NCBI GenBank assembly: GCA_964587125.1
Contig: CAZPKC010000006.1
Coordinates: 7,881-71,880, forward strand
Direction of reading: 5' to 3'
DNA: 64,000 nt
Source: an uncultured Rhodospirillaceae bacterium
GTDB lineage: Bacteria; Pseudomonadota; Alphaproteobacteria; UBA9219
Shown here: one piece after another, positions 5,985 to 60,388 of the stretch
Position numbering within the stretch: the stretch's first letter is position 1
How the letters are laid out: each line of letters starts with the position of its first letter
The notes under the pieces: generated by a model
What the model saw: the letters and a program-made list of their open reading frames with translations, nothing else
The model's database searches: none
Told to the model about the DNA's origin: nothing
Position numbers and translations under genes: made by a program

Positions 5985-7445
5985 TTGCGAGAGAAGGCAA
6001 AACAATCCCCTTTCCAAGGAAAGCCCCATATGCGTTCTATTTTTCGCAAGAAAATCATTACCCATACGGATTCCGAATATGACCGTAGTTCTTTACGAAA
6101 ATGCCTTTCCGCCCTTGACCTGACGTTGCTCGGCATCGGATGCATTATCGGCACGGGAATTTTCGTTCTTACGGGCATAGCGGCCGCGACGCAGGCCGGT
6201 CCCGCCGTTGTCCTGTCTTTTGTGATCGCCAGCGTCCCCTGCATTATGGCCGCTCTTTCCTATGCTGAACTGGCTTCCTGCGTGGGCGGTTGCGGCAGCG
6301 CCTATGGTTATTCCTATGCCGCATTCGGCGAACTGATCGCATGGATCGTGGGGTGGGACCTTATTCTCGAGTATGGGGTTTCGGTCGCAGCCGTCGCCAA
6401 TGGTTGGTCGGGTTATTTCAATAACATTCTGACTGTCATCGGCTTGTCGCTTCCCAACTGGCTTACGCGCGGGCCTTTCGACAGCGGGATCGTCAATCTT
6501 CCCGCCGCATTTATCATTCTGACGCTGATGGGCGTTCTTGTGCTGGGCATCCGGCAAAGCGCGCAGACGAACGCGGCGATTGTTTTTATCAAGCTCGTGA
6601 CGCTTGCCGTTTTCATCATTGTTGCGTTGTTCAATATTCATCCGGCAAACTGGCATCCTTTCATGCCTTACGGCTGGTTTTCAACTCTGCCCGGCGGAAA
6701 GACCGTCGGCGTCCTTGCTGCGGCTTCTTTGGTGTTTTTCGCCTATGTAGGTTTCGACGCCGTTTCGGTCGCCGTCGAAGAAACGCGCAATCCGCGGCGC
6801 GATGTGCCCATCGGCATTCTGGCCTCTCTGGGATTTTGCACGCTTGTCTATGTTATCGTATCGGGATTGCTGACTTCTCTCGTTCCCTACACCGAGCTTA
6901 ACGTGTCGTCGCCGGTCGCTTTCGCGCTTCAACAGATCGGCATTCATTGGGCGTCGGCATTGGTCGCCACGGGCGTTATCGCGGGACTGACTTCGGTGAT
7001 GCTGGCGCTTTACTACGCCCTAACCCGCATCATCTACGCCATGGGACGGGATGGTTTGCTGCCGCGAGGCGTGGCGCTCGTCAACGAGAGGACGCTCACC
7101 CCCGTGCGCGCGACGGTACTGCCGGGCATCCTTATGGCGATCATCGCAGGATTTTTTCCTCTCGGCATTTTGGCGGAACTGGTGAATATCGGCACGTTGG
7201 CGGCTTTTATTCTTGTGTGCGGGGGCGTCATCGTTCTGCGGTACACGCATCCGAAAATGCACCGCCCCTTCAAAGTGCCGGGAGGCATCGTCTTGCCGAT
7301 GCTCGGCGTCGTGACGTGCGGCGCATTAATCGCTTTCTTGCCGCTCATCACGCATCTTCGATTTGTCATCTGGCTTGTAATCGGCATCGCCGTTTACTTC
7401 GGCTACTCGGTCAGACACAGCAATCTGGCCGACAAGCACAACTAA
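5985..7445 (+). CDS. APC-superfamily amino acid permease (cationic amino acid transporter-like), ~12 TM
   Basis: Hydrophobic multi-helix translation. The N-terminal region LTLLGIGCIIGTGIFVLTGIAAATQAGPAVVLSFVIASV is typical of APC permeases. An alternative start at the internal ATG (about 6030) has an aggaaag Shine-Dalgarno. Confidence 0.8.
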   Translation: MREKAKQSPFQGKPHMRSIFRKKIITHTDSEYDRSSLRKCLSALDLTLLGIGCIIGTGIFVLTGIAAATQAGPAVVLSFVIASVPCIMAALSYAELASCVGGCGSAYGYSYAAFGELIAWIVGWDLILEYGVSVAAVANGWSGYFNNILTVIGLSLPNWLTRGPFDSGIVNLPAAFIILTLMGVLVLGIRQSAQTNAAIVFIKLVTLAVFIIVALFNIHPANWHPFMPYGWFSTLPGGKTVGVLAAASLVFFAYVGFDAVSVAVEETRNPRRDVPIGILASLGFCTLVYVIVSGLLTSLVPYTELNVSSPVAFALQQIGIHWASALVATGVIAGLTSVMLALYYALTRIIYAMGRDGLLPRGVALVNERTLTPVRATVLPGILMAIIAGFFPLGILAELVNIGTLAAFILVCGGVIVLRYTHPKMHRPFKVPGGIVLPMLGVVTCGALIAFLPLITHLRFVIWLVIGIAVYFGYSVRHSNLADKHN

Positions 7446-14564: not shown

Positions 14565-17519
14565 TTACTGATTAATTCCGTCAATGCCGCAAGGCGTAAC
14601 TTCATTGCACTGAATAAGCGGCGTGATGCCCGCGTTTCCAGCCCCGCCCGCCTGAGGCGACAGTTCGGCAAGAGAAGTCGGGTTATCGCCGCCCGCATGA
14701 GGCGACAAATCAGCCAAATTCCCGCCCGTGGTCTCTCCGCCGCCGCCGTTCACGATCGAAAGAAGCGTGCCATAGGGTCCGTTTCTGTTGAAGTTATGAG
14801 GAACGTGCTCAAGCACGTCGCCGATGTCCAGAGGATCAACCGTCAACGTGCCCGGGACTATCGTAATAGTGTAGCCGTCGGGATTAGTCGCCACTGTGGC
14901 GACCGCGCCGATGTCAGGATAAGCACCCACGGGCGCCGGAGGCGGCGATCCCGCCGACGTTATATTACTAAAGGTCGGCGGCGTTGTAAGGAAGACGCCG
15001 AGATAAGCGCTCGGATCATAAGCGGCCCCGCCAATCGTATAGCTCGACGTAAAGCCATCGCTCGCCACGACCGACGTGTAGTCTTGCCCGAAAAACTTGG
15101 TCAGATCGTTGAAGGTCACGGTAAGAGCGGGCTCGACGGCGAAGACGTAACGGTCGCCATCGACGGTAATGCTGGTGGGATAAACGGTGTCCCAAATGGC
15201 CGTATTCCCGCTATCGAGGTTGCCGAATACGTCCGTCAGGGGACTGTAGCTATAAACCAGCCAGCGTCCGTCCAAAGCGGTGGGGCTTGCATTATTATTG
15301 ATGAAGTCGCCGTAGCTGTCGGCAAGCGTCACGGACGTTCCTTCTGCCGTGCTATTGACGCCGCCGTTTGCGCCCAGAGTAATGCTTCCGGCTCCGATGC
15401 TCGCGTTCCCCGCAAGAACCTCCGCCAGAAACACGCTGTTGCCCATCGTTTGCATGCCGTTAATTTCGATGCTGCCGGTGTCGTTCAACAGGTTCACGTT
15501 CGTTTGCCAAGTATAGCCGTTGGCCGTGATCGTTCCCGAATCGCGGAAAGTGTTGCCGACGGTAATGCTCGCCGCTTCGGAATTCACATCGCCCAAAACG
15601 GTATTTGTCAGTTGAAGGGTGATGGGGTCGCCTTCGTTATTGAACGCTTCGTCCGCCGGCGATCCGCCGACGCCGATGTTGGTGCCCGACGTAAGAGGTT
15701 CGAAGAAAACGTCTCCGGTTGTTTCTATGGTAGCCGTATTGTCCATGCTGATCGTGTCGGTCACGAAGACGATGTTTCCGCTGTCCCCTACACTGCCGAT
15801 CGTGGCTCCGTCGGTCACGACGATACCGTAATTCCCGTCGCTCGCGAGATTATCTCCGCCGCCGATGCCGACGATCTTGATATTGCCGCTCGTCGAAAGA
15901 ACTTCCGCGTCGGACGTTATGAAGACGCCATAGTTGTTTCCGCTAGGAGAAACATCGCCAATGCTTTCGACAGCGGCAACGAAGTCTTCGCTATCGCTGA
16001 CAGAAACATTTCCACCTTGGCCGAAGATTTTGACGTTGCCGCTATTCGAATAAACTTCCGTGCCACACGTCAGATAAACGCCATAGTTGTTTCCACTGCC
16101 AAAACCGCTGCCTGCGCCTCCGCCGATGCCAACGATCTTGATGTTGCCGCTATCCGATGAAACGACGTCGCCGCTATCCGATGGGACATCCGCGCCGGGC
16201 GGCGTTATCATAAAGACGCCATAGTTGTTTCCGCTGACATTGGCAGCGTCTTGACCGCCGCCTTGGCCGAATATCGAAATCTTGCCGCTACCGCTTGTCT
16301 CGACAACAGAGGCGTTGGCCAACTCGACGCCGTAATCGTAACCGGCCACAAAGGAAGATGCCCCGTTATATCCCGTGCCGGAGATGGAAATGTTCCCGCC
16401 GTTGCCCGCATTAAGCGTGGCGTCGTTAAGATAAACGCCGGCCGTATAAGAACTGTTGCCCTGACCGGCAAGTTTGATGTTTCCGCCGTTCGTGACAATG
16501 GACGAACCCGGATCCATTTCGATCGAGCCGCCGCTCGCCTTAACGCTGCCGTCATTGGTCGTAATGGACGAACCTGCGCCCATATCGATGGAGTTGGCCG
16601 TCAGAACGATCTGGCCGTTTACGGTTTCGACGTTTTCGGCCTGAACGATGCTGTCCAGATTGATCTGGCTGTCGACGACGGCCTCGGCTGCGGACGCCGT
16701 CAATATGACTTGGCCGCCGTTGGAATTGATCGTGCCTGTATTTTCGACCAGCTGATCCTTGATATTTCCGCTGGCCGTCATGCTAAGAAGCCCGTCGCCA
16801 TAAAGATCGACGGAAGTAGCCGTATCGCCGGAAGCAAGAATGACTGTGCCGACATTGGCGTTGATCGTGCCATTATTGACCACTTCAGGAGCGACAAGCG
16901 CGACAAGCCCGCTCGATGTTATCGTGCCGTTATTCGTGACGGACGCAGAGCCGTTGCCGCCCGGCGCAAAGGCGAACGTATTGGTCGTAACATTGGGATT
17001 GAAATTCGAAGAACTGATCGCGCTCGCCGTTGCGATCAAGCCGCCGACGCTGACGGTCGAACCATTTTCAAACGTGATGCCGTTGCCGTTAGCCAGAATA
17101 AGCGTGCCGTTCGGATCGCTGATCTTGCCGAAAATTTGCGAGGCGCTGTTGCCGCCAATTTGGGCAAGAGTCACCATACTTGAAGCAGTAGATTTGTTAA
17201 CAAAATCGACCGTAGCGCTGGAGCCGACGTTGAAGCTCAAAAAATTGATAATCGCGCTGGCTGAGGTTTGTTTGATCGTTTCGGTAACGGTAGGCTTCAA
17301 AATGGTACCGCCGAAGCTGTACCCCAAAGAGGCGTTGCCGCTGGAAGCAATGTTGCTCGGAGTAAGGATCTTGGTTGGAACGGGCGTCGTGAGCGCGGGA
17401 ACCGCTGCCAACGCGGAAGAAACGAACGCCGGATTGATAATGCAAACGGCGGTCAAAAGGCCAGCTATGCTGCTGGCAAATTTCTTATTGTGTTTTTTCG
17501 TCATAGCCGAGTCTCCCAA
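14565..17519 (-). CDS. TpsA-type exoprotein (filamentous-haemagglutinin-family N-terminal TPS domain) with repetitive beta-helical body
   Basis: Signal peptide, then a TPS-domain-like region (ISDPNGTLILANGNGITFENGS, resembling the NPNGI motif). Long G/S/N/T-rich sequence with repeated GNNYGV(Y/F) and SGNIKI(V/F)G(I/Q)GG units. Confidence 0.7.
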   Translation of the reverse strand: MGDSAMTKKHNKKFASSIAGLLTAVCIINPAFVSSALAAVPALTTPVPTKILTPSNIASSGNASLGYSFGGTILKPTVTETIKQTSASAIINFLSFNVGSSATVDFVNKSTASSMVTLAQIGGNSASQIFGKISDPNGTLILANGNGITFENGSTVSVGGLIATASAISSSNFNPNVTTNTFAFAPGGNGSASVTNNGTITSSGLVALVAPEVVNNGTINANVGTVILASGDTATSVDLYGDGLLSMTASGNIKDQLVENTGTINSNGGQVILTASAAEAVVDSQINLDSIVQAENVETVNGQIVLTANSIDMGAGSSITTNDGSVKASGGSIEMDPGSSIVTNGGNIKLAGQGNSSYTAGVYLNDATLNAGNGGNISISGTGYNGASSFVAGYDYGVELANASVVETSGSGKISIFGQGGGQDAANVSGNNYGVFMITPPGADVPSDSGDVVSSDSGNIKIVGIGGGAGSGFGSGNNYGVYLTCGTEVYSNSGNVKIFGQGGNVSVSDSEDFVAAVESIGDVSPSGNNYGVFITSDAEVLSTSGNIKIVGIGGGDNLASDGNYGIVVTDGATIGSVGDSGNIVFVTDTISMDNTATIETTGDVFFEPLTSGTNIGVGGSPADEAFNNEGDPITLQLTNTVLGDVNSEAASITVGNTFRDSGTITANGYTWQTNVNLLNDTGSIEINGMQTMGNSVFLAEVLAGNASIGAGSITLGANGGVNSTAEGTSVTLADSYGDFINNNASPTALDGRWLVYSYSPLTDVFGNLDSGNTAIWDTVYPTSITVDGDRYVFAVEPALTVTFNDLTKFFGQDYTSVVASDGFTSSYTIGGAAYDPSAYLGVFLTTPPTFSNITSAGSPPPAPVGAYPDIGAVATVATNPDGYTITIVPGTLTVDPLDIGDVLEHVPHNFNRNGPYGTLLSIVNGGGGETTGGNLADLSPHAGGDNPTSLAELSPQAGGAGNAGITPLIQCNEVTPCGIDGINQ

Positions 17520-38644: not shown

Positions 38645-39514
38645 TCAGTGAGACGAAAGCGCGTAGGGTTTGATGGGACGGAAAAACTCTTCAGAATCGG
38701 AATAAACGCGAATGATACGATCGGCCGTTCCGTCAAAAAACAGTTCGCCAAGCGCAACGTCGATCATCGTCTTGAACGCAACATCGCCCTGCGGCAAGCC
38801 AAAGGATGCCGCATAGACTTGCAAGGGACTCGTTTTATCGAGAATCTTCACTTTGCCCGGATTGGCTTTATCGTAGCTGAGAAAATCGGAATAGGTTACG
38901 CCGGTCGCATCGGCTTTCTTCGTTTCGACTTCCTGCAAAATCGAAGAAAAATCGTTCATCTGCGGCAACGATTTGATTTGAGCCTTTGGGAATCTTACGG
39001 GAGCCAAAAAGCTGAAGGCTTCTCCGTCAAGCACCGAGATCGTATAGGCCGGATCGTTCGCGTCATCCGTTTTATGAATACGGTTTTCATCCGCGCGAAC
39101 GACGAGATACGTAGGCGCGTAAAAAAGCGGCGCGCTGAAATCAATCTCGCGCGCGCGGCCCGAAATCACGCCAATCCCGGTGCAAATGGCGTCGTAACGA
39201 TGCGTCGCGAGGCCCTCGACAACCGTTCCCCAATTCGTTTCTTCCGCCCATTCGATACGCAGGCTAAGCTTCTTGCCGATCTCTTCCATAATGTCGTGCG
39301 AAATGCCTTTGATCTCGCCGGTTTTCAAGTCCTTGAAAAGAACGGGGCTCCATATCGCATAGCCGCAGCGGATTGTCTTTGTTCGCATCACGCGGTCGAA
39401 CGCCGTTTCCTGTTTGGCGGGAGTCGCGTTTTCGCGCCCCGCAGGACGCAGGGCGACAACCAACAACGCGATAAGGGCGACGACGAGAGACAAAACCGCG
39501 ATTTTGTTTTTCAT
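38645..39514 (-). CDS. Family-3 periplasmic solute-binding protein (amino-acid-binding PBPb type), orphan, embedded between nuoL and nuoM
   Basis: Signal peptide MKNKIAVLSLVVALIALLVVA. Bilobal SBP_bac_3-like sequence (RCGYAIWSPVLFKD...DAICTGIGVISGRAREIDFSAP). Intergenic gaps of 4 nt and 9 nt to nuoL and nuoM. Confidence 0.65.
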   Translation of the reverse strand: MKNKIAVLSLVVALIALLVVALRPAGRENATPAKQETAFDRVMRTKTIRCGYAIWSPVLFKDLKTGEIKGISHDIMEEIGKKLSLRIEWAEETNWGTVVEGLATHRYDAICTGIGVISGRAREIDFSAPLFYAPTYLVVRADENRIHKTDDANDPAYTISVLDGEAFSFLAPVRFPKAQIKSLPQMNDFSSILQEVETKKADATGVTYSDFLSYDKANPGKVKILDKTSPLQVYAASFGLPQGDVAFKTMIDVALGELFFDGTADRIIRVYSDSEEFFRPIKPYALSSH

Positions 39515-43909: not shown

Positions 43910-45955
43910 TTATTCCGGAGCCTCCTTTGAAAGAAGGGGCAGGATAACTTCGGCGCATTTCTTCATCGTCGGCGAGGCGCGGCTGATGGGATCGGTCGCA
44001 TAGAAATTCTCGATTGCGGGCGCGAACGGAATATTTTGAACGCTTCCCGCGCCGCCGAACCGCGACCACGCGGATTTTTCCGCAACGCCGATGTTGGCAA
44101 GCGCGGGAGCGCATTCGGCCATTTTCTCGCGCAGCTGCGTAATCGTGTCGAAAGGCAAAGGCGTTCCGAAAACGTCGGAGAAAGCGCGGATGATTTTCCA
44201 GTCCTCGCGCGCGTCGCCCGGCGGGAACGTCGCTTGCAACGCCAATTGCGGGCGGCCTTCGGTGTTGACGTAAGTTCCGGTCTTTTCGGTATAGGCCGCG
44301 CCCGGCAAAATCACGTCGGCATGATGCGCGCCTTTATCGCCGTGATGCCCTTGATAGATCACAAACGCATCTCCTAAATTTTTGAAATCGATTTCATCCG
44401 CGCCCAGAAGCCAGATCACATCCATACCGCCGCTAAGGATTTTGCGCGTTCCCGCGCCGCCCGTTTGCGGCAGAAAACCGAGATCGATTCCTCCCACGCG
44501 CGATGCCGCAAGCTGAAGGACATTGAACCCGTTCCAATCCTCGCGTATTGCATTAAAATGTTCGGCTAACTCTCTGACGGTTCTGTGTAAAGCAGCACCG
44601 TCTGAACGCGCCAAAGCACTCGCGCCGAGAATGAGCATCGGCTTTTTCGCGGATTTAAAAACCGCCGCGAATGCGCCTTCGCCGTTCATCAGATCGGAGA
44701 TGGATTGCGGCGTGTTGCCGATATATGCGTGCGGGTACGAAAGATCGGCCGGAGACCCTATGAGGCCTATGCGACAACCTCCACGCAGCCAGCGTTTGCG
44801 GATGCGCGCGTTGACCATCGTTCCCTCAACGCGCGGATTGGTTCCGATAAGCAAAATCGCATCGGCCTCTTCGATCCCCGCGATGCCGCTGTTCATCATA
44901 TAGGCCGCGCGACACGAAACGTCGTACTCCGCGCCGTCCTGCCTGCAATCCATGTTGGGCGAACCTATCGCCTCCATCAGGCATTTCAGCGCGAACATGG
45001 ATTCGCAATCCGCGAGGTCTCCCGCCAAGGCCGCGACGCGGGATGCCGCGCTGTCATGAAGTTTTTCGGCGATAACGGAGAAGGCTTCATCCCACGAAGC
45101 GGGAACGAGTTTTCCGTCACGGCGCACATAGGGCTTGTCGAGGCGTTGGCGTTTAAGCCCGTCGATAGCGAAGCGCGTTTTATCGTTGATCCATTCCTCG
45201 TTGATGCCGTCGTTGCGGCGAGGAAGGACGCGCATGACCTCGTTGCCGCGCGTATCGACGCGGATATTGCTGCCAATTGCGTCGAACACGTCGATGGTTT
45301 CGGTTTTCTGAAGTTCCCACGAGCGATAGGTAAAGGCCGCAGGTTTATTCGTCAAAGCCCCCGTGGGGCAGATGTCGATAAGATTGCCCGAAAGCTCGGA
45401 CGTCAGCGCGCGCGAAATATAGGTATCGATTTCAAGATTCTCGCCGCGATACATGCCGCCCAATTCGGGCGTGCCGCAAATCTCGTCGAGAAAACGGATG
45501 CAGCGCGTGCAATGGATGCAGCGCGTCATCGCGGTTTTGATAAGCGGCCCCAGTTCTTTTTCTTTAACGACGCGTTTGTCGTCTTTATACCGGCCGCAGG
45601 AACATCCATAGGCCACGGCTTCGTCCTGCAGATCGCATTCGCCGCCGCGGTCGCAGATGGGGCAATCGAGGGGGTGGTTGATGAGCAAAAGTTCCATCAC
45701 GCCTTGGCGCGCTTTTTTGACCATCGGCGTGTCTGTATGCACCACCATTCCCTCGGCGCAGGGTTGCGCGCAACTGGGAACTGGTTTCGGATTTTTTTCG
45801 ATTTCGACGAGGCACATGCGGCAATTGGCCGGAACGCTGAGCTTGTCGTGGCAGCAGAAATGCGGGATTTCGACGCCCGCCTGCTGCGCGGCCTGCAAAA
45901 TGCTCGTGCCCGCCGCGACTTCAAGTTGAATGCCATTGATGGTCAGTTTAGGCAT
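43910..45955 (-). CDS. nuoG: NADH-quinone oxidoreductase subunit G
   Basis: MPKLTINGIQLEV...; Fe-S cysteine clusters. Internal ATG chosen; the track ORF starts 9 nt upstream at an alternative start codon. Confidence 0.9.
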   Translation of the reverse strand: MPKLTINGIQLEVAAGTSILQAAQQAGVEIPHFCCHDKLSVPANCRMCLVEIEKNPKPVPSCAQPCAEGMVVHTDTPMVKKARQGVMELLLINHPLDCPICDRGGECDLQDEAVAYGCSCGRYKDDKRVVKEKELGPLIKTAMTRCIHCTRCIRFLDEICGTPELGGMYRGENLEIDTYISRALTSELSGNLIDICPTGALTNKPAAFTYRSWELQKTETIDVFDAIGSNIRVDTRGNEVMRVLPRRNDGINEEWINDKTRFAIDGLKRQRLDKPYVRRDGKLVPASWDEAFSVIAEKLHDSAASRVAALAGDLADCESMFALKCLMEAIGSPNMDCRQDGAEYDVSCRAAYMMNSGIAGIEEADAILLIGTNPRVEGTMVNARIRKRWLRGGCRIGLIGSPADLSYPHAYIGNTPQSISDLMNGEGAFAAVFKSAKKPMLILGASALARSDGAALHRTVRELAEHFNAIREDWNGFNVLQLAASRVGGIDLGFLPQTGGAGTRKILSGGMDVIWLLGADEIDFKNLGDAFVIYQGHHGDKGAHHADVILPGAAYTEKTGTYVNTEGRPQLALQATFPPGDAREDWKIIRAFSDVFGTPLPFDTITQLREKMAECAPALANIGVAEKSAWSRFGGAGSVQNIPFAPAIENFYATDPISRASPTMKKCAEVILPLLSKEAPE

Positions 45956-45964
45956 GCACTGCAC

Positions 45965-46155
45965 CGATAAAAAATGCCGTCATTCCGGAAAATTCGCTTT
46001 TTTGCCCCTGCTTGCAAAAATGCGAATTTATCCGGAATCCGATTTGCTTGGTTTGCTTACGGAAAGAGAACCAAATCGGATTCCGCATAAATTTTCTCTC
46101 GCTTTGCGAAGAGAAAATTTTGCGGAATGACGAGGATATATTGATGGCAGACGGG
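45965..46155. repeat. ~190-nt multi-hairpin element (three consecutive near-perfect stem-loops closed by an outer inverted repeat cgtcattccg/cggaatgacg), sitting between the GIY-YIG ORF and nuoG
   Basis: Read directly. Hairpin 1: attccggaaaattcgc...gcgaatttatccggaat. Hairpin 2: cggaatccgatttg...caaatcggattccg (14 bp perfect). Hairpin 3: aaattttctct...agagaaaattt. The outer ends (ccgtcattccg / cggaatgacgag) are complementary. Confidence 0.55.
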
Positions 46156-46449
46156 TTAGTTAAGATGGTCGTAGAGATCGATCCATTTCGGATTAAGCTT
46201 TTTAACAAGCTCGATCTTCCAAAGGCGTTTCCATTTTTTGACTTTCTTTTCAAAGGTAATGGCTTCGATTGCAGTTGGAAACTCGGCGCACCAGACAAGC
46301 TTTTTAAGGCCGTACTTTTTGGTATGTCCTTTGATAAGTCCTTCTCGATGCTCATGTGCGCGCCGCGCGATATTGTTTGTGACGCCGACATAGAGAGTGC
46401 CGTAAGGTTCGTCAGTGACGATATATACCCAAAAGCGCCTTTCATTCAT
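46156..46449 (-). CDS. GIY-YIG nuclease-family small protein (97 aa), inserted between nuoF and nuoG
   Basis: [29 protein letters not shown] matches the GIY-YIG motif (UPF0213/YhbQ-like). Its ATG overlaps the nuoF stop (ATGA). Confidence 0.7.
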
Positions 46450-47726
46450 GCCACCTTCGCTTTCTTGCGATAGTTTTCGATACGCTCGATCATAAGCGGC
46501 TTGAAGTGGCGGATGAGGCCTTGGATGGGCCAGACCGCGCCGTCGGCGAACGCGCAGATCGTGCGGCCTTCGATTTCCTTCGTCACGTCGAGCATCATGT
46601 CGATTTCGTCAACCGTCGCGTTGCCCTCGGCCATCCGCGTCATCATGCGCCAAAGCCAGCCCATGCCTTCGCGGCACGGCGTGCATTGGCCGCACGTTTC
46701 GTGCTTGTAAAAGCGGCTGATGCGCGCGACGGCGGAAATAATATCGGTTGATTTGTCCATCACGATCACCGCCGCCGTGCCGAGACTCGAATGAACGCTT
46801 TGCAGCGCGTCAAAATCCATCAGCACCGTGTCGCAGATTTCCTTGGGGATAAGCGGCATCGAGGAACCGCCGGGAATGACGGCAAGCAAATTATCCCAGC
46901 CGCCGCGAACGCCTCCGGCGTGTTTCTCGATAAGCTCTTTCAAGGGAATGCTCATCGCCTCTTCGACATTGCAGGGTTCGTTGACATGGCCGGAAAGGCA
47001 GAACAATTTCGTGCCGCTGTTTTTGGGACGTCCGAAGCTTGTATACCAATTCGCGCCGCGCCGGAGGATTTCAGGCACCGAGGCGAGCGTCTCGACGTTG
47101 TTGACCGTCGTCGGGCAGGAATAAAGTCCCGCGTTTGCCGGAAACGGCGGCTTGTTGCGTGGCTGGCCTTTTTTGCCTTCGAGGCTTTCCATGAGCGCGG
47201 TTTCTTCGCCGCAGATATAGCCGCCCGCCCCACGATGCAGATAAACGTCGCAATCCCATCCCGAACCCGCGGCGTTTTTGCCGAGCAGGCCGTAAGCATA
47301 AGCCTCGTCGATCGCCTGTTGCAGAATTTGGGCTTCGTTGAAAAATTCTCCGCGAATGTAGATATAGGCCGCATGCGCGTTGATCGCGAAGGCCGCGATG
47401 AGCGCGCCTTCGAGCAGACGATGCGGATCGTGGCGCAAAATATCGCGGTCCTTGCACGTTCCGGGTTCGGATTCGTCGGCGTTGACGAGAAGATAGTGCG
47501 GCTTCTCGGAGGGCTTCGGCATGAACGACCATTTCATGCCCGTGGGGAACCCTGCCCCGCCGCGTCCGCGCAAGCTCGATTTTTTGATTTCGTCGATGAT
47601 TGCGGATGCGCCTTTCCCGATGATTTCCGCCGTTTTATCCCAAACGCCGCGCCGCCGCGCGGCCGCGAGGTTCCAGCTCTCGAAGCCGTAAAGATTGGTG
47701 AAGACGCGATCTTTGTCTTTAAGCAT
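46446..47726 (-). CDS. nuoF: NADH-quinone oxidoreductase subunit F
   Basis: NAD/FMN-binding [10 protein letters not shown]; 4Fe-4S Cys motif. Confidence 0.95.
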
Positions 47727-60113: not shown

Positions 60114-60188
60114 TGGTGCCGATTGTGTGATTCGAACACACGACCTACCGCTTACAAGGCGGTTGCTCTACCCCTGAGCTAAATCGGC
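60114..60188 (-). tRNA. tRNA-Thr (anticodon TGT)
   Basis: The reverse complement reads GCCGATTTAGCTCAGGGGTAGAGCAACCGCCTTGTAAGCGGTAGGTCGTGTGTTCGAATCACACAATCGGCACCA. It folds as a cloverleaf with anticodon loop CTTGTAA, T-arm GGTTCGAATCC-like and encoded CCA. Confidence 0.85.
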
Positions 60189-60316
60189 TAACTTAATTTC
60201 CTCCGCAACCGCCTTGTAACAGGTTTTGCTCGCCTGCGCTCGCGGGGCGGGTGCTCTACCCCTGAGCTAAATCGGCTAACTTCACTCTGCTCTACCCCTG
60301 AGCTAAATCGGCTTTT
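60189..60316. repeat. Tandem partial copies of the tRNA-Thr 5' segment (gctctacccctgagctaaatcggc plus the taactt flank) and of its anticodon-arm segment, immediately upstream of the tRNA 5' end
   Basis: Direct repeats read in sequence at about 60164-60193 (inside the tRNA), 60252-60283 and 60288-60313. caaccgccttgtaac is repeated at about 60206-60220. Confidence 0.7.
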
Positions 60317-60388
60317 GTCGATCATCTAACACAACATTTCCTAAACTAACAACTGGAAGTACGGGGACTTTGCTGCTAGACAAAATTC

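Follow-up and report, generated by a model that had tools for sequence, protein, structure and literature searches.

SsnA of Neisseria meningitidis is a 94-aa single-domain GIY-YIG protein (CDD cd10448) whose target is the Neisseria repeat NTS (CGTCATTCCCGCGMAVGCGGGAATCYRG), which encompasses dRS3 (Chenal et al., Nat Commun 2025, PMC11893778). The enzyme binds the hairpin of this repeat as single-stranded DNA (ssDNA) only and on one strand only, binding neither double-stranded DNA (dsDNA) nor RNA, and cleaves a few nucleotides upstream of the hairpin; cutting is abolished by the Y6A, Y17A and E64A substitutions. Within NTS, cleavage depends on the three nucleotides that precede the palindrome, and binding on the C that follows it. 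There are thousands of Ssn homologues, most of them flanked by ‘Ssn-related motifs’ (SRMs); the discoverers likened the NTS-ssnA-NTS layout to an insertion sequence (IS) and left open the role of Ssn outside naturally transformable Neisseria. The enzymes characterised so far come from Neisseria, N. elongata, N. wadsworthii and Wolbachia (PMC11893778). Here we describe a small GIY-YIG gene and an adjoining palindromic element that stand between nuoF and nuoG in the complex I (nuo) operon of an uncultured Rhodospirillaceae bacterium. Both lie in a 64,000-nt stretch of contig CAZPKC010000006.1 (positions 7,881 to 71,880 of the forward strand), which is referred to as the window throughout. In all likelihood the gene encodes an Ssn-family site-specific ssDNA endonuclease, and the element consists of two of that enzyme's recognition repeats, head to head; such repeats are known variously as SRMs, NTS-like motifs or CGTC-tagged repetitive extragenic palindromes (REPs).

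The ‘CGTC-tagged REPs’ were catalogued as repeats with an unpaired CGTC or TGTC tag and AT-starting stems, occurring mostly as head-to-head dimers (Di Nocera et al., BMC Genomics 2013, PMC3733652). Their hosts are mainly alphaproteobacterial and include Micavibrio aeruginosavorus, Azospirillum lipoferum and Sinorhizobium meliloti, and the Neisseria members were equated with dRS3. The four described families have 8-9-bp stems and 4-5-nt loops, and the repeats ‘apparently lack a dedicated transposase’ (PMC3733652).

The nuo operon of the window runs on the minus strand, where all features of an initial annotation, made from the sequence alone, were recovered in the same places. The ssn-like gene (46156-46449, minus strand) encodes a 97-aa protein, and its ATG (46449-46447) overlaps the TGA stop codon of nuoF (46446-46448) as ATGA, just as had been annotated. 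The profile search proposed at that time also came out positive: residues 6-78 match the Pfam GIY-YIG family (PF01541; E = 2.1e-15, 57 bits with a cut-off of 22.6), and no second domain was found by Pfam profiles. The predicted catalytic residues are Y9, Y20 and E67, and their spacing (11 and 47 residues) equals that of Y6, Y17 and E64 in N. meningitidis SsnA, an indirect comparison by published residue numbers. Y20 does not vary among 38 homologues, in which Y9 and E67 are conserved to at least 90%. A profile search returned more than 7,900 homologues, with no Neisseria protein among the best 120 of them. The nearest solved structures in a PDB sequence search are UPF0213 protein BH0048 and SLX1, both distant, and no Ssn structure is among the matches. 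The gene is the only one of the GIY-YIG kind in the window. Comparison with its counterpart in the metagenome-assembled genome (MAG) JBAZNY01 gave a dN/dS of 0.02, with synonymous sites saturated, and by this measure the window gene is under strong purifying selection.

The identity of an intron-type homing endonuclease was considered and rejected. The NCBIfam profile of group I intron endonucleases (TIGR01453) reaches 19.7 bits, far under its cut-off of 56, and covers the N-terminal 45 residues only, leaving the C-terminal DNA-binding region unmatched. The idea of a domesticated homing-endonuclease-like insertion, one of the two explanations offered initially, is therefore unsupported in its intron-type form.

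The start codon of nuoG is most likely the ATG at 45955 (MPKLTING...), which is the nuoG start in the gene calls of two identical public contigs; the spacer between the ssn stop codon, on the nuoF side, and nuoG is therefore 200 nt long (45956-46155). The element proper occupies 155 nt of it (45978-46132), or about 200 nt when its degenerate flanks are counted. The structured spacer is real; the earlier figure of about 190 nt has to be replaced by one or the other of these lengths. A short linker (46133-46155, minus strand) separates the element from the ssn stop codon and includes a degenerate flank (ctgccatcaatatatcct) that resembles the loosely conserved flanks of other copies (58 copies compared), and nuoG starts 22 nt past the element.

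RNA folding of the spacer gave three hairpins in a row, with about 22, 14 and 23 pairs and single mismatches, in agreement with the three near-perfect hairpins annotated before. The energy of this fold is -81.5 kcal/mol against -49.9 ± 4.3 for shuffled sequences (z = -7.4; none of 200 shuffles was as good), and ssDNA folding gave z-values of -7.0 for the first arm, -7.2 for the last and -10 for the core. The first arm, motif A (46076-46132, minus strand; hairpin 1 of the initial annotation), consists of a CGTC tag, ATTCCGC, a 35-nt extended hairpin and GCGGAAT, followed by CCGA. Motif B (45978-46042, plus strand; the former hairpin 3) has a CGTC tag, ATTCCGG, a 43-nt extended hairpin and CCGGAAT, again followed by CCGA. 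Both SRM/NTS-like arms were delimited from the sequence, the DNA fold and a tagged-hairpin scan, and share one design: an unpaired CGTC tag, the palindrome ATTCCGS...SCGGAAT, a 3′ C, and a hairpin of 35-43 nt grafted on the tip. The middle hairpin (46039-46079, with no strand of its own) folds by pairing of the two arm tails, CCGATTTGG ... CCAAgcAAATCGG, around a variable loop. Tag, outer palindrome and 3′ C of both arms are identical letter for letter to Neisseria NTS, with CGTCATTCC at the start and GGAATC at the end. The outer inverted repeat (CGTCATTCCG at 46132-46123 and CGGAATGACG at 45987-45978), which had been described as closing the whole element, is present, and these two are its sole exact occurrences in the 64 kb; read against NTS, it in fact consists of the CGTC tags at the 5′ ends of two Ssn-related hairpin motifs in inverted orientation. 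Throughout the window, the scan for hairpins with a CGTC tag and an AT-starting stem found only these two arms, 24-170 nt downstream of ssn.

Repeat and pattern searches found no second copy of the element in the window, which taken alone would misleadingly make it look unique; the copy test proposed for a miniature inverted-repeat transposable element (MITE) had to be extended to a genome collection. We scanned the collection for the central hairpin (GGAATCCGAT, 14-44 nt, ATCGGATTCC) and obtained at least 114 loci, and 58 non-redundant full elements were extracted from related MAGs among the loci listed. At least 19 copies are present in the 118 kb fetched from JBAZNY01 and at least 17 in the 93 kb fetched from the alphaproteobacterial MAG DATKSH01, with several each in Micavibrio sp. 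and in Rhodospirillales/Rhodospirillaceae MAGs. JBAZNY01, a Micavibrio-like MAG, is labelled ‘Bdellovibrionales’, the label under which NCBI also places Micavibrio. The copies occur in dozens of unrelated intergenic contexts. Thus, the element is neither unique nor specific to nuo but one copy of a dispersed palindromic repeat, and the description of it as a MITE/REP-like companion of the gene holds as far as repetition is concerned.

The copies share the layout GTCATTCCG-S, variable hairpin, S-CGGAATCCGAT, loop, ATCGGATTCCG-S, variable hairpin, S-CGGAATGAC. At the closing pair formed by the two S positions, 54 arms have G:C, 49 have C:G and a single one has a non-complementary combination, i.e. 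the pair covaries in 103 of 104 arms; a unique element whose hairpins lack covariation, which the initial annotation had named as a sign against its proposal, is not what we found. Tip inserts differ in sequence, extend to about 80 nt in other copies and have been exchanged between positions, yet 97% of them fold better than shuffled sequences (z < -2). The covarying closing pair and the folding of such diverse tips argue that pairing is selected and that the element is a mosaic. On the outside, comparison of the 58 copies revealed a loosely conserved inverted extension, about 20 nt long and specific to each genome, and neither the copies nor their flanks showed a target-site duplication.

For the analysis of gene context, loci of other genomes are cited by label: L104 and L115 belong to JBAZNY01, L003 to DATKSH01, L009 to Microbaculum marinum and L204 to plasmid AZO_p3 of Azospirillum lipoferum 4B. 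All nine homologues inspected by hand (those of the window, L104, L003, L009 and L115, and two each in L007 and L008) have CGTC-tagged palindromes within about 100 nt. Where the palindromes differ they still lie beside the gene, as in L008 (CGTCATGCCAGCGAAGGCTGGCATCCCA) and M. marinum (CGTCATCCCGG...). The association was then quantified in 80 metagenome loci with homologues 44-59% identical to the window protein, counting as a tagged hairpin a [CT]GTC tag with an AT-starting stem and as near anything within 250 nt of the gene. The density of tagged hairpins is 2.59 per kb near the gene versus 0.12 per kb elsewhere, and none of five control tags is comparably enriched near the gene in these loci. 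By intergenic gap, a tagged hairpin is present in 73 of the 140 gaps that flank the gene and in 10 of the 125 others (odds ratio 12.5, P = 1.5e-15). In the commonest layout one hairpin ends 5-40 nt before the start codon and another begins 2-20 nt past the stop codon, tags outward.

The published SRM pattern is likewise enriched 20-fold beside homologues (1.35 vs 0.07 per kb), with matches in the relatives L008, L009, L115, L104 and L204. Between sufB and sufC of A. lipoferum lies a homologue (54% identical) flanked on both sides by an SRM doublet (L204 1388-1896); the doublets have the same inverted-pair layout as the window element, but with short hairpins and an unstructured spacer. In S. 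meliloti the homologue lies between gltA and lpxB with one SRM on each side. A second JBAZNY01 paralogue (L115 5417-5800), which shares 49% identity with the window protein, has canonical motifs (CGTCATACCGGCGAAAGCCGGTATCCAG) on both sides, tags outward, so that one genome may hold several enzyme-repeat pairs. The same MAG, which carries the extended-hairpin variant, also contains an exact match to the published N. meningitidis NTS consensus (CGTCATTCCCGCGAAAGCGGGAATCCAG, L104 2161-2188).

We next compared the locus with its relatives. An ssn copy occupies the nuoF-nuoG junction in the window, L104, L007 and L008, with extra copies at nuoE-nuoF or nuoI-nuoJ. At 65-68% protein identity, L007 has two ssn genes, one at nuoE-nuoF and one at nuoF-nuoG, each followed by an element of the same design. 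None of 80 more distant homologue loci matched nuoD-nuoH queries. The comparison of nuoF-nuoG among relatives, which had been suggested as a check, thus places the gene at this junction in three relatives, and as judged from these and the distant loci the nuo location of ssn is confined to one clade. Identity of the window ssn at nuoF-nuoG with its counterparts is 92% in L104, 68% in L007 and 61% in L008, to be set beside 81%, 69% and 62% for nuoG and 84%, 78% and 75% for nuoF, respectively. The ATGA overlap of nuoF and ssn is kept in L104. These comparisons fit one old insertion at nuoF-nuoG, retained as a working gene. A caveat is the closer match (78%) of the window protein to the leuS-linked DATKSH01 copy; the nuo operon of that MAG lay outside the sequence compared. 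The DATKSH01 homologue (77-78% identical) is located between a DUF3576 gene and leuS, preceded by a partial element and followed by a full one. In this homologue (L003 2427-2744) the first beta-strand, including the first catalytic tyrosine, is replaced by unrelated residues; this form recurs in five contigs and may be a decaying copy.

The repeats are more changeable. JBAZNY01, whose nuo genes share about 79% identity with those of the window, has the nuoF-nuoG element inverted, as judged by the order of the two distinct tip cassettes. It carries an extra element between nuoG and nuoH, where the window spacer is 3 nt, and another (L104 34-183) for which the window offers no counterpart at all; at nuoF-nuoG of L008 the repeat is of a different type. 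Clean filled-versus-empty site alignments between the window and JBAZNY01 were not obtained at two loci, because intergenic DNA is too diverged at about 79% identity. Partial tandem copies of the 3′ part of the element together with duplicated flank were observed at L007 4497-4665, where the duplicated flank includes the nuoF start region, and at L104 6711-6755. L104 also has a 171-aa hydrophobic open reading frame (ORF) between the element and nuoG (6095-6610, minus strand) that is absent from the window, and small extra ORFs occur between several nuo genes of L008.

Taken together, these observations are best read as an Ssn-family gene with its own repeats, and the window feature is then a variant member of the system published in 2025, with long-stemmed paired repeats and an ssn gene fixed in an essential operon. 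By analogy with SsnA, the protein would bind each arm only when that strand is single-stranded and folded, and in one orientation; replication, repair or DNA uptake are examples of processes that could provide such a state. The nick would fall a few nucleotides 5′ of the CGTC tag, which on the minus strand places the predicted cut on the linker side, within 46133-46155, and a doublet would be cut on opposite strands, once immediately beyond either end. A gene-plus-repeat module would have entered the nuoF-nuoG junction in an ancestor of a Micavibrio-like clade, and would since have been read from the nuo transcript and kept under purifying selection as the repeat family went on turning over across genomes. 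Expression from the nuo transcript is suggested by the ATGA overlap and by a promoter/terminator scan, which found no promoter-like site for the ssn region. Possible outcomes of the activity are that it limits or shapes recombination of incoming or replicating ssDNA, or that it spreads the repeats.

Several points weigh against this interpretation. The published SRM pattern, HGTCWYN(0-2)YYVSBRHN(0-5)WNVSBRGN(0-2)RNCYNB, has no match on either strand of the window, because it admits loops of 0-5 nt only, too short for the tip extensions of 35-43 nt. When the Neisseria palindrome was altered with the hairpin kept, activity was lost (PMC11893778), and by that analogy the long-stemmed variants are putative Ssn targets only. 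The window ssn has repeats downstream only, its upstream side being nuoF coding sequence, and so does not show the typical SRM-gene-SRM bracket. Most copies of the element have no GIY-YIG gene within their own 8-kb locus, and adjacency alone is no proof of which enzyme acts on the repeats. Protein similarity and repeat type are not strictly parallel either: the second L007 protein and the first of L008 (L007b and L008a) are 77% identical, and their repeat types differ. Finally, the published route to Ssn membership is assignment to cd10448 or a BLAST E-value < 1e-10 to N. meningitidis SsnA (PMC11893778), whereas the present assignment is drawn from protein size, residue spacing, homologue context and repeat sequence. 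With these points counted in, we still hold the Ssn reading as a whole to be highly probable.

The strongest competitor is an active selfish element in which gene and repeat are currently mobile in a homing- or IS-like manner and the nuclease spreads the solo triple-hairpin copies as non-autonomous MITEs. The family is dispersed, multi-copy and bounded by degenerate extended inverted flanks, copies are present or absent at nuoG-nuoH and other sites when the window is compared with JBAZNY01, the nuoF-nuoG element differs in orientation between the two, additional ssn paralogues occur at nuoE-nuoF and nuoI-nuoJ, and partial copies have duplicated flanks; moreover, the tags-outward bracketing of most homologues is IS-like, as the Ssn authors remarked (PMC11893778). 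Inverted ends and degenerate extended flanks are present, as in MITEs. Against mobility, target-site duplications were not seen, no clean filled-versus-empty site could be aligned, and the ssn copy at nuoF-nuoG looks vertically inherited, its identities tracking those of nuoG under strong purifying selection. The sole gene associated with the repeats encodes a hydrolytic nuclease; GIY-YIG enzymes hydrolyse DNA, and to our knowledge strand transfer is not known from them, which also counts against mobility. On balance we regard an active selfish element as unlikely, though it deserves to be kept in mind. A bolder version, to which we give slightly less credence still, is that the extended SRM doublets are still-mobile non-autonomous elements and the SRM-ssn-SRM unit of about 0.4 kb is their autonomous form, a minimal IS-like element with nothing but a 95-aa nuclease. 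If true, these elements would survive by lodging in indispensable, highly transcribed operons (nuo; suf in Azospirillum), where they are co-transcribed and hard to lose. The CGTC REP superfamily would gain its missing mobilising enzyme, and a transposition-like process would be driven by a hydrolytic nuclease.

The other explanation offered in the initial annotation was an RNA processing or stability element. In a fuller form, the spacer would be a signal for processing, stability or attenuation of the RNA and would set the expression ratio of nuoA-F to nuoG-N, the GIY-YIG gene being incidental. The very stable RNA fold within a polycistronic transcript and the T-run 3′ of the element (GGCATTTTTTAT) would suit such a signal, as would the known stabilisation of upstream mRNA by REP-type hairpins (background in PMC3733652). 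However, the Rfam scan of the window found no family on the element, its sole match being a tRNA, and no terminator-like site was called on the minus strand. The same element recurs in dozens of unrelated intergenic contexts, its inversion at nuoF-nuoG in a relative alters the RNA sequence, L008 has another repeat type there, and the 80 more distant homologue loci have no match to nuoD-nuoH queries. We therefore consider an operon RNA signal improbable. A dedicated nuo function of the element RNA is not supported: nothing points to one, and N. meningitidis SsnA is inactive on RNA. The nuo transcript would nevertheless carry the element as a very stable RNA, and a side effect on the mRNA is possible; incidental buffering of upstream mRNA may be its form. 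Chance palindromes beside an unrelated small nuclease gene, which the single copy in the 64-kb window might have suggested, can be set aside as practically negligible, being already refuted by the fold z-values of -7 to -10, the 58 homologous copies, the gene-hairpin association and the covarying closing pair.

Two complex I genes border the insert: nuoF (46446-47726, minus strand) encodes the 426-aa complex I 51-kDa subunit, as seen in the ORF list, the sequence and Pfam matches on the identical contig L001, and nuoG (43910-45955, minus strand) encodes 681 aa by the ORF list and by gene calls and Pfam on the same contig. Another passenger was noticed between nuoL and nuoM, a 289-aa periplasmic solute-binding gene of the SBP_bac_3 type (38645-39514, minus strand). 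SBP_bac_3-type genes are also present at nuoC-nuoD and nuoI-nuoJ in L007, and solute-binding protein genes form, next to ssn, another type of passenger that recurs in these nuo operons. Elsewhere in the window, the tRNA gene at 60117-60188 (minus strand) has two additional partial copies of its 5′ half in front of it (60237-60282 and 60273-60318), and the region 15858-16877, with several periodic direct-repeat families spaced at 66-153 nt, is probably a gene for a repetitive protein.

The Ssn reading links three things: an unexplained insert in a respiratory operon, a catalogue of alphaproteobacterial CGTC palindromes that came without an enzyme, and the Ssn family of 2025. Since the published SRM motif misses the long-stemmed paired class, censuses of Ssn systems underestimate their number. 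Ssn genes recur in essential operons, at nuoE-nuoF, nuoF-nuoG and nuoI-nuoJ here and at sufB-sufC in Azospirillum. The translationally coupled, selected copy in the window offers a concrete locus at which the role of Ssn beyond naturally transformable Neisseria can be studied, and enzymes of this clade may have recognition rules useful as single-strand DNA tools.

Among known systems, REP/REPIN elements with their REP-associated tyrosine transposases (RAYTs) and bacterial interspersed mosaic elements (BIMEs) pair tyrosine transposases of the IS200/IS605 type with GTAG-tagged REPs. The resemblance to the window locus lies in a small gene flanked by inverted hairpin repeats, a repeat far more numerous elsewhere in the genome, the occurrence of doublets and mosaics, ssDNA hairpin recognition (assumed here by analogy) and mostly vertical inheritance; the enzyme, however, is an HUH tyrosine transposase there and a GIY-YIG hydrolase here, and the tag is GTAG there and CGTC here. 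Homing GIY-YIG endonucleases, free-standing or encoded in introns, such as I-TevI, Seg and Mob, share the catalytic domain and insertion between conserved genes, but they have a separate DNA-binding domain, cut dsDNA and lack a repeat family. With CGTC-tagged REPs the window element has in common the tag, the AT stem start, the head-to-head dimer, an alphaproteobacterial host and a position downstream of genes. It differs in stem and loop size, both outside the range of the four described families (stems reach more than 20 bp as against 8-9 bp), and in the association with a GIY-YIG gene, which appears here and in the later Ssn work but not in the 2013 paper (PMC3733652). From the Ssn/NTS system itself the locus departs in its hairpin tips, where an extra stem-loop of 35-43 nt falls outside the published SRM search pattern, in the fusion of two repeats through their tails into a compact three-hairpin mosaic of about 150 nt, and in having repeats on one side only of a gene that is translationally coupled to nuoF in an essential operon; Ssn biochemistry covers the Neisseria and Wolbachia enzymes, whereas the window clade is known from sequence alone. 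Yet it is this system that the locus resembles most closely: both have a single-domain GIY-YIG protein of about 95 aa with the same catalytic spacing, inverted hairpins of the form CGTCATTCC...GGAATC plus C adjoining the gene, homologues bracketed with tags outward, and repeats that are many-copy, dispersed and almost always intergenic.

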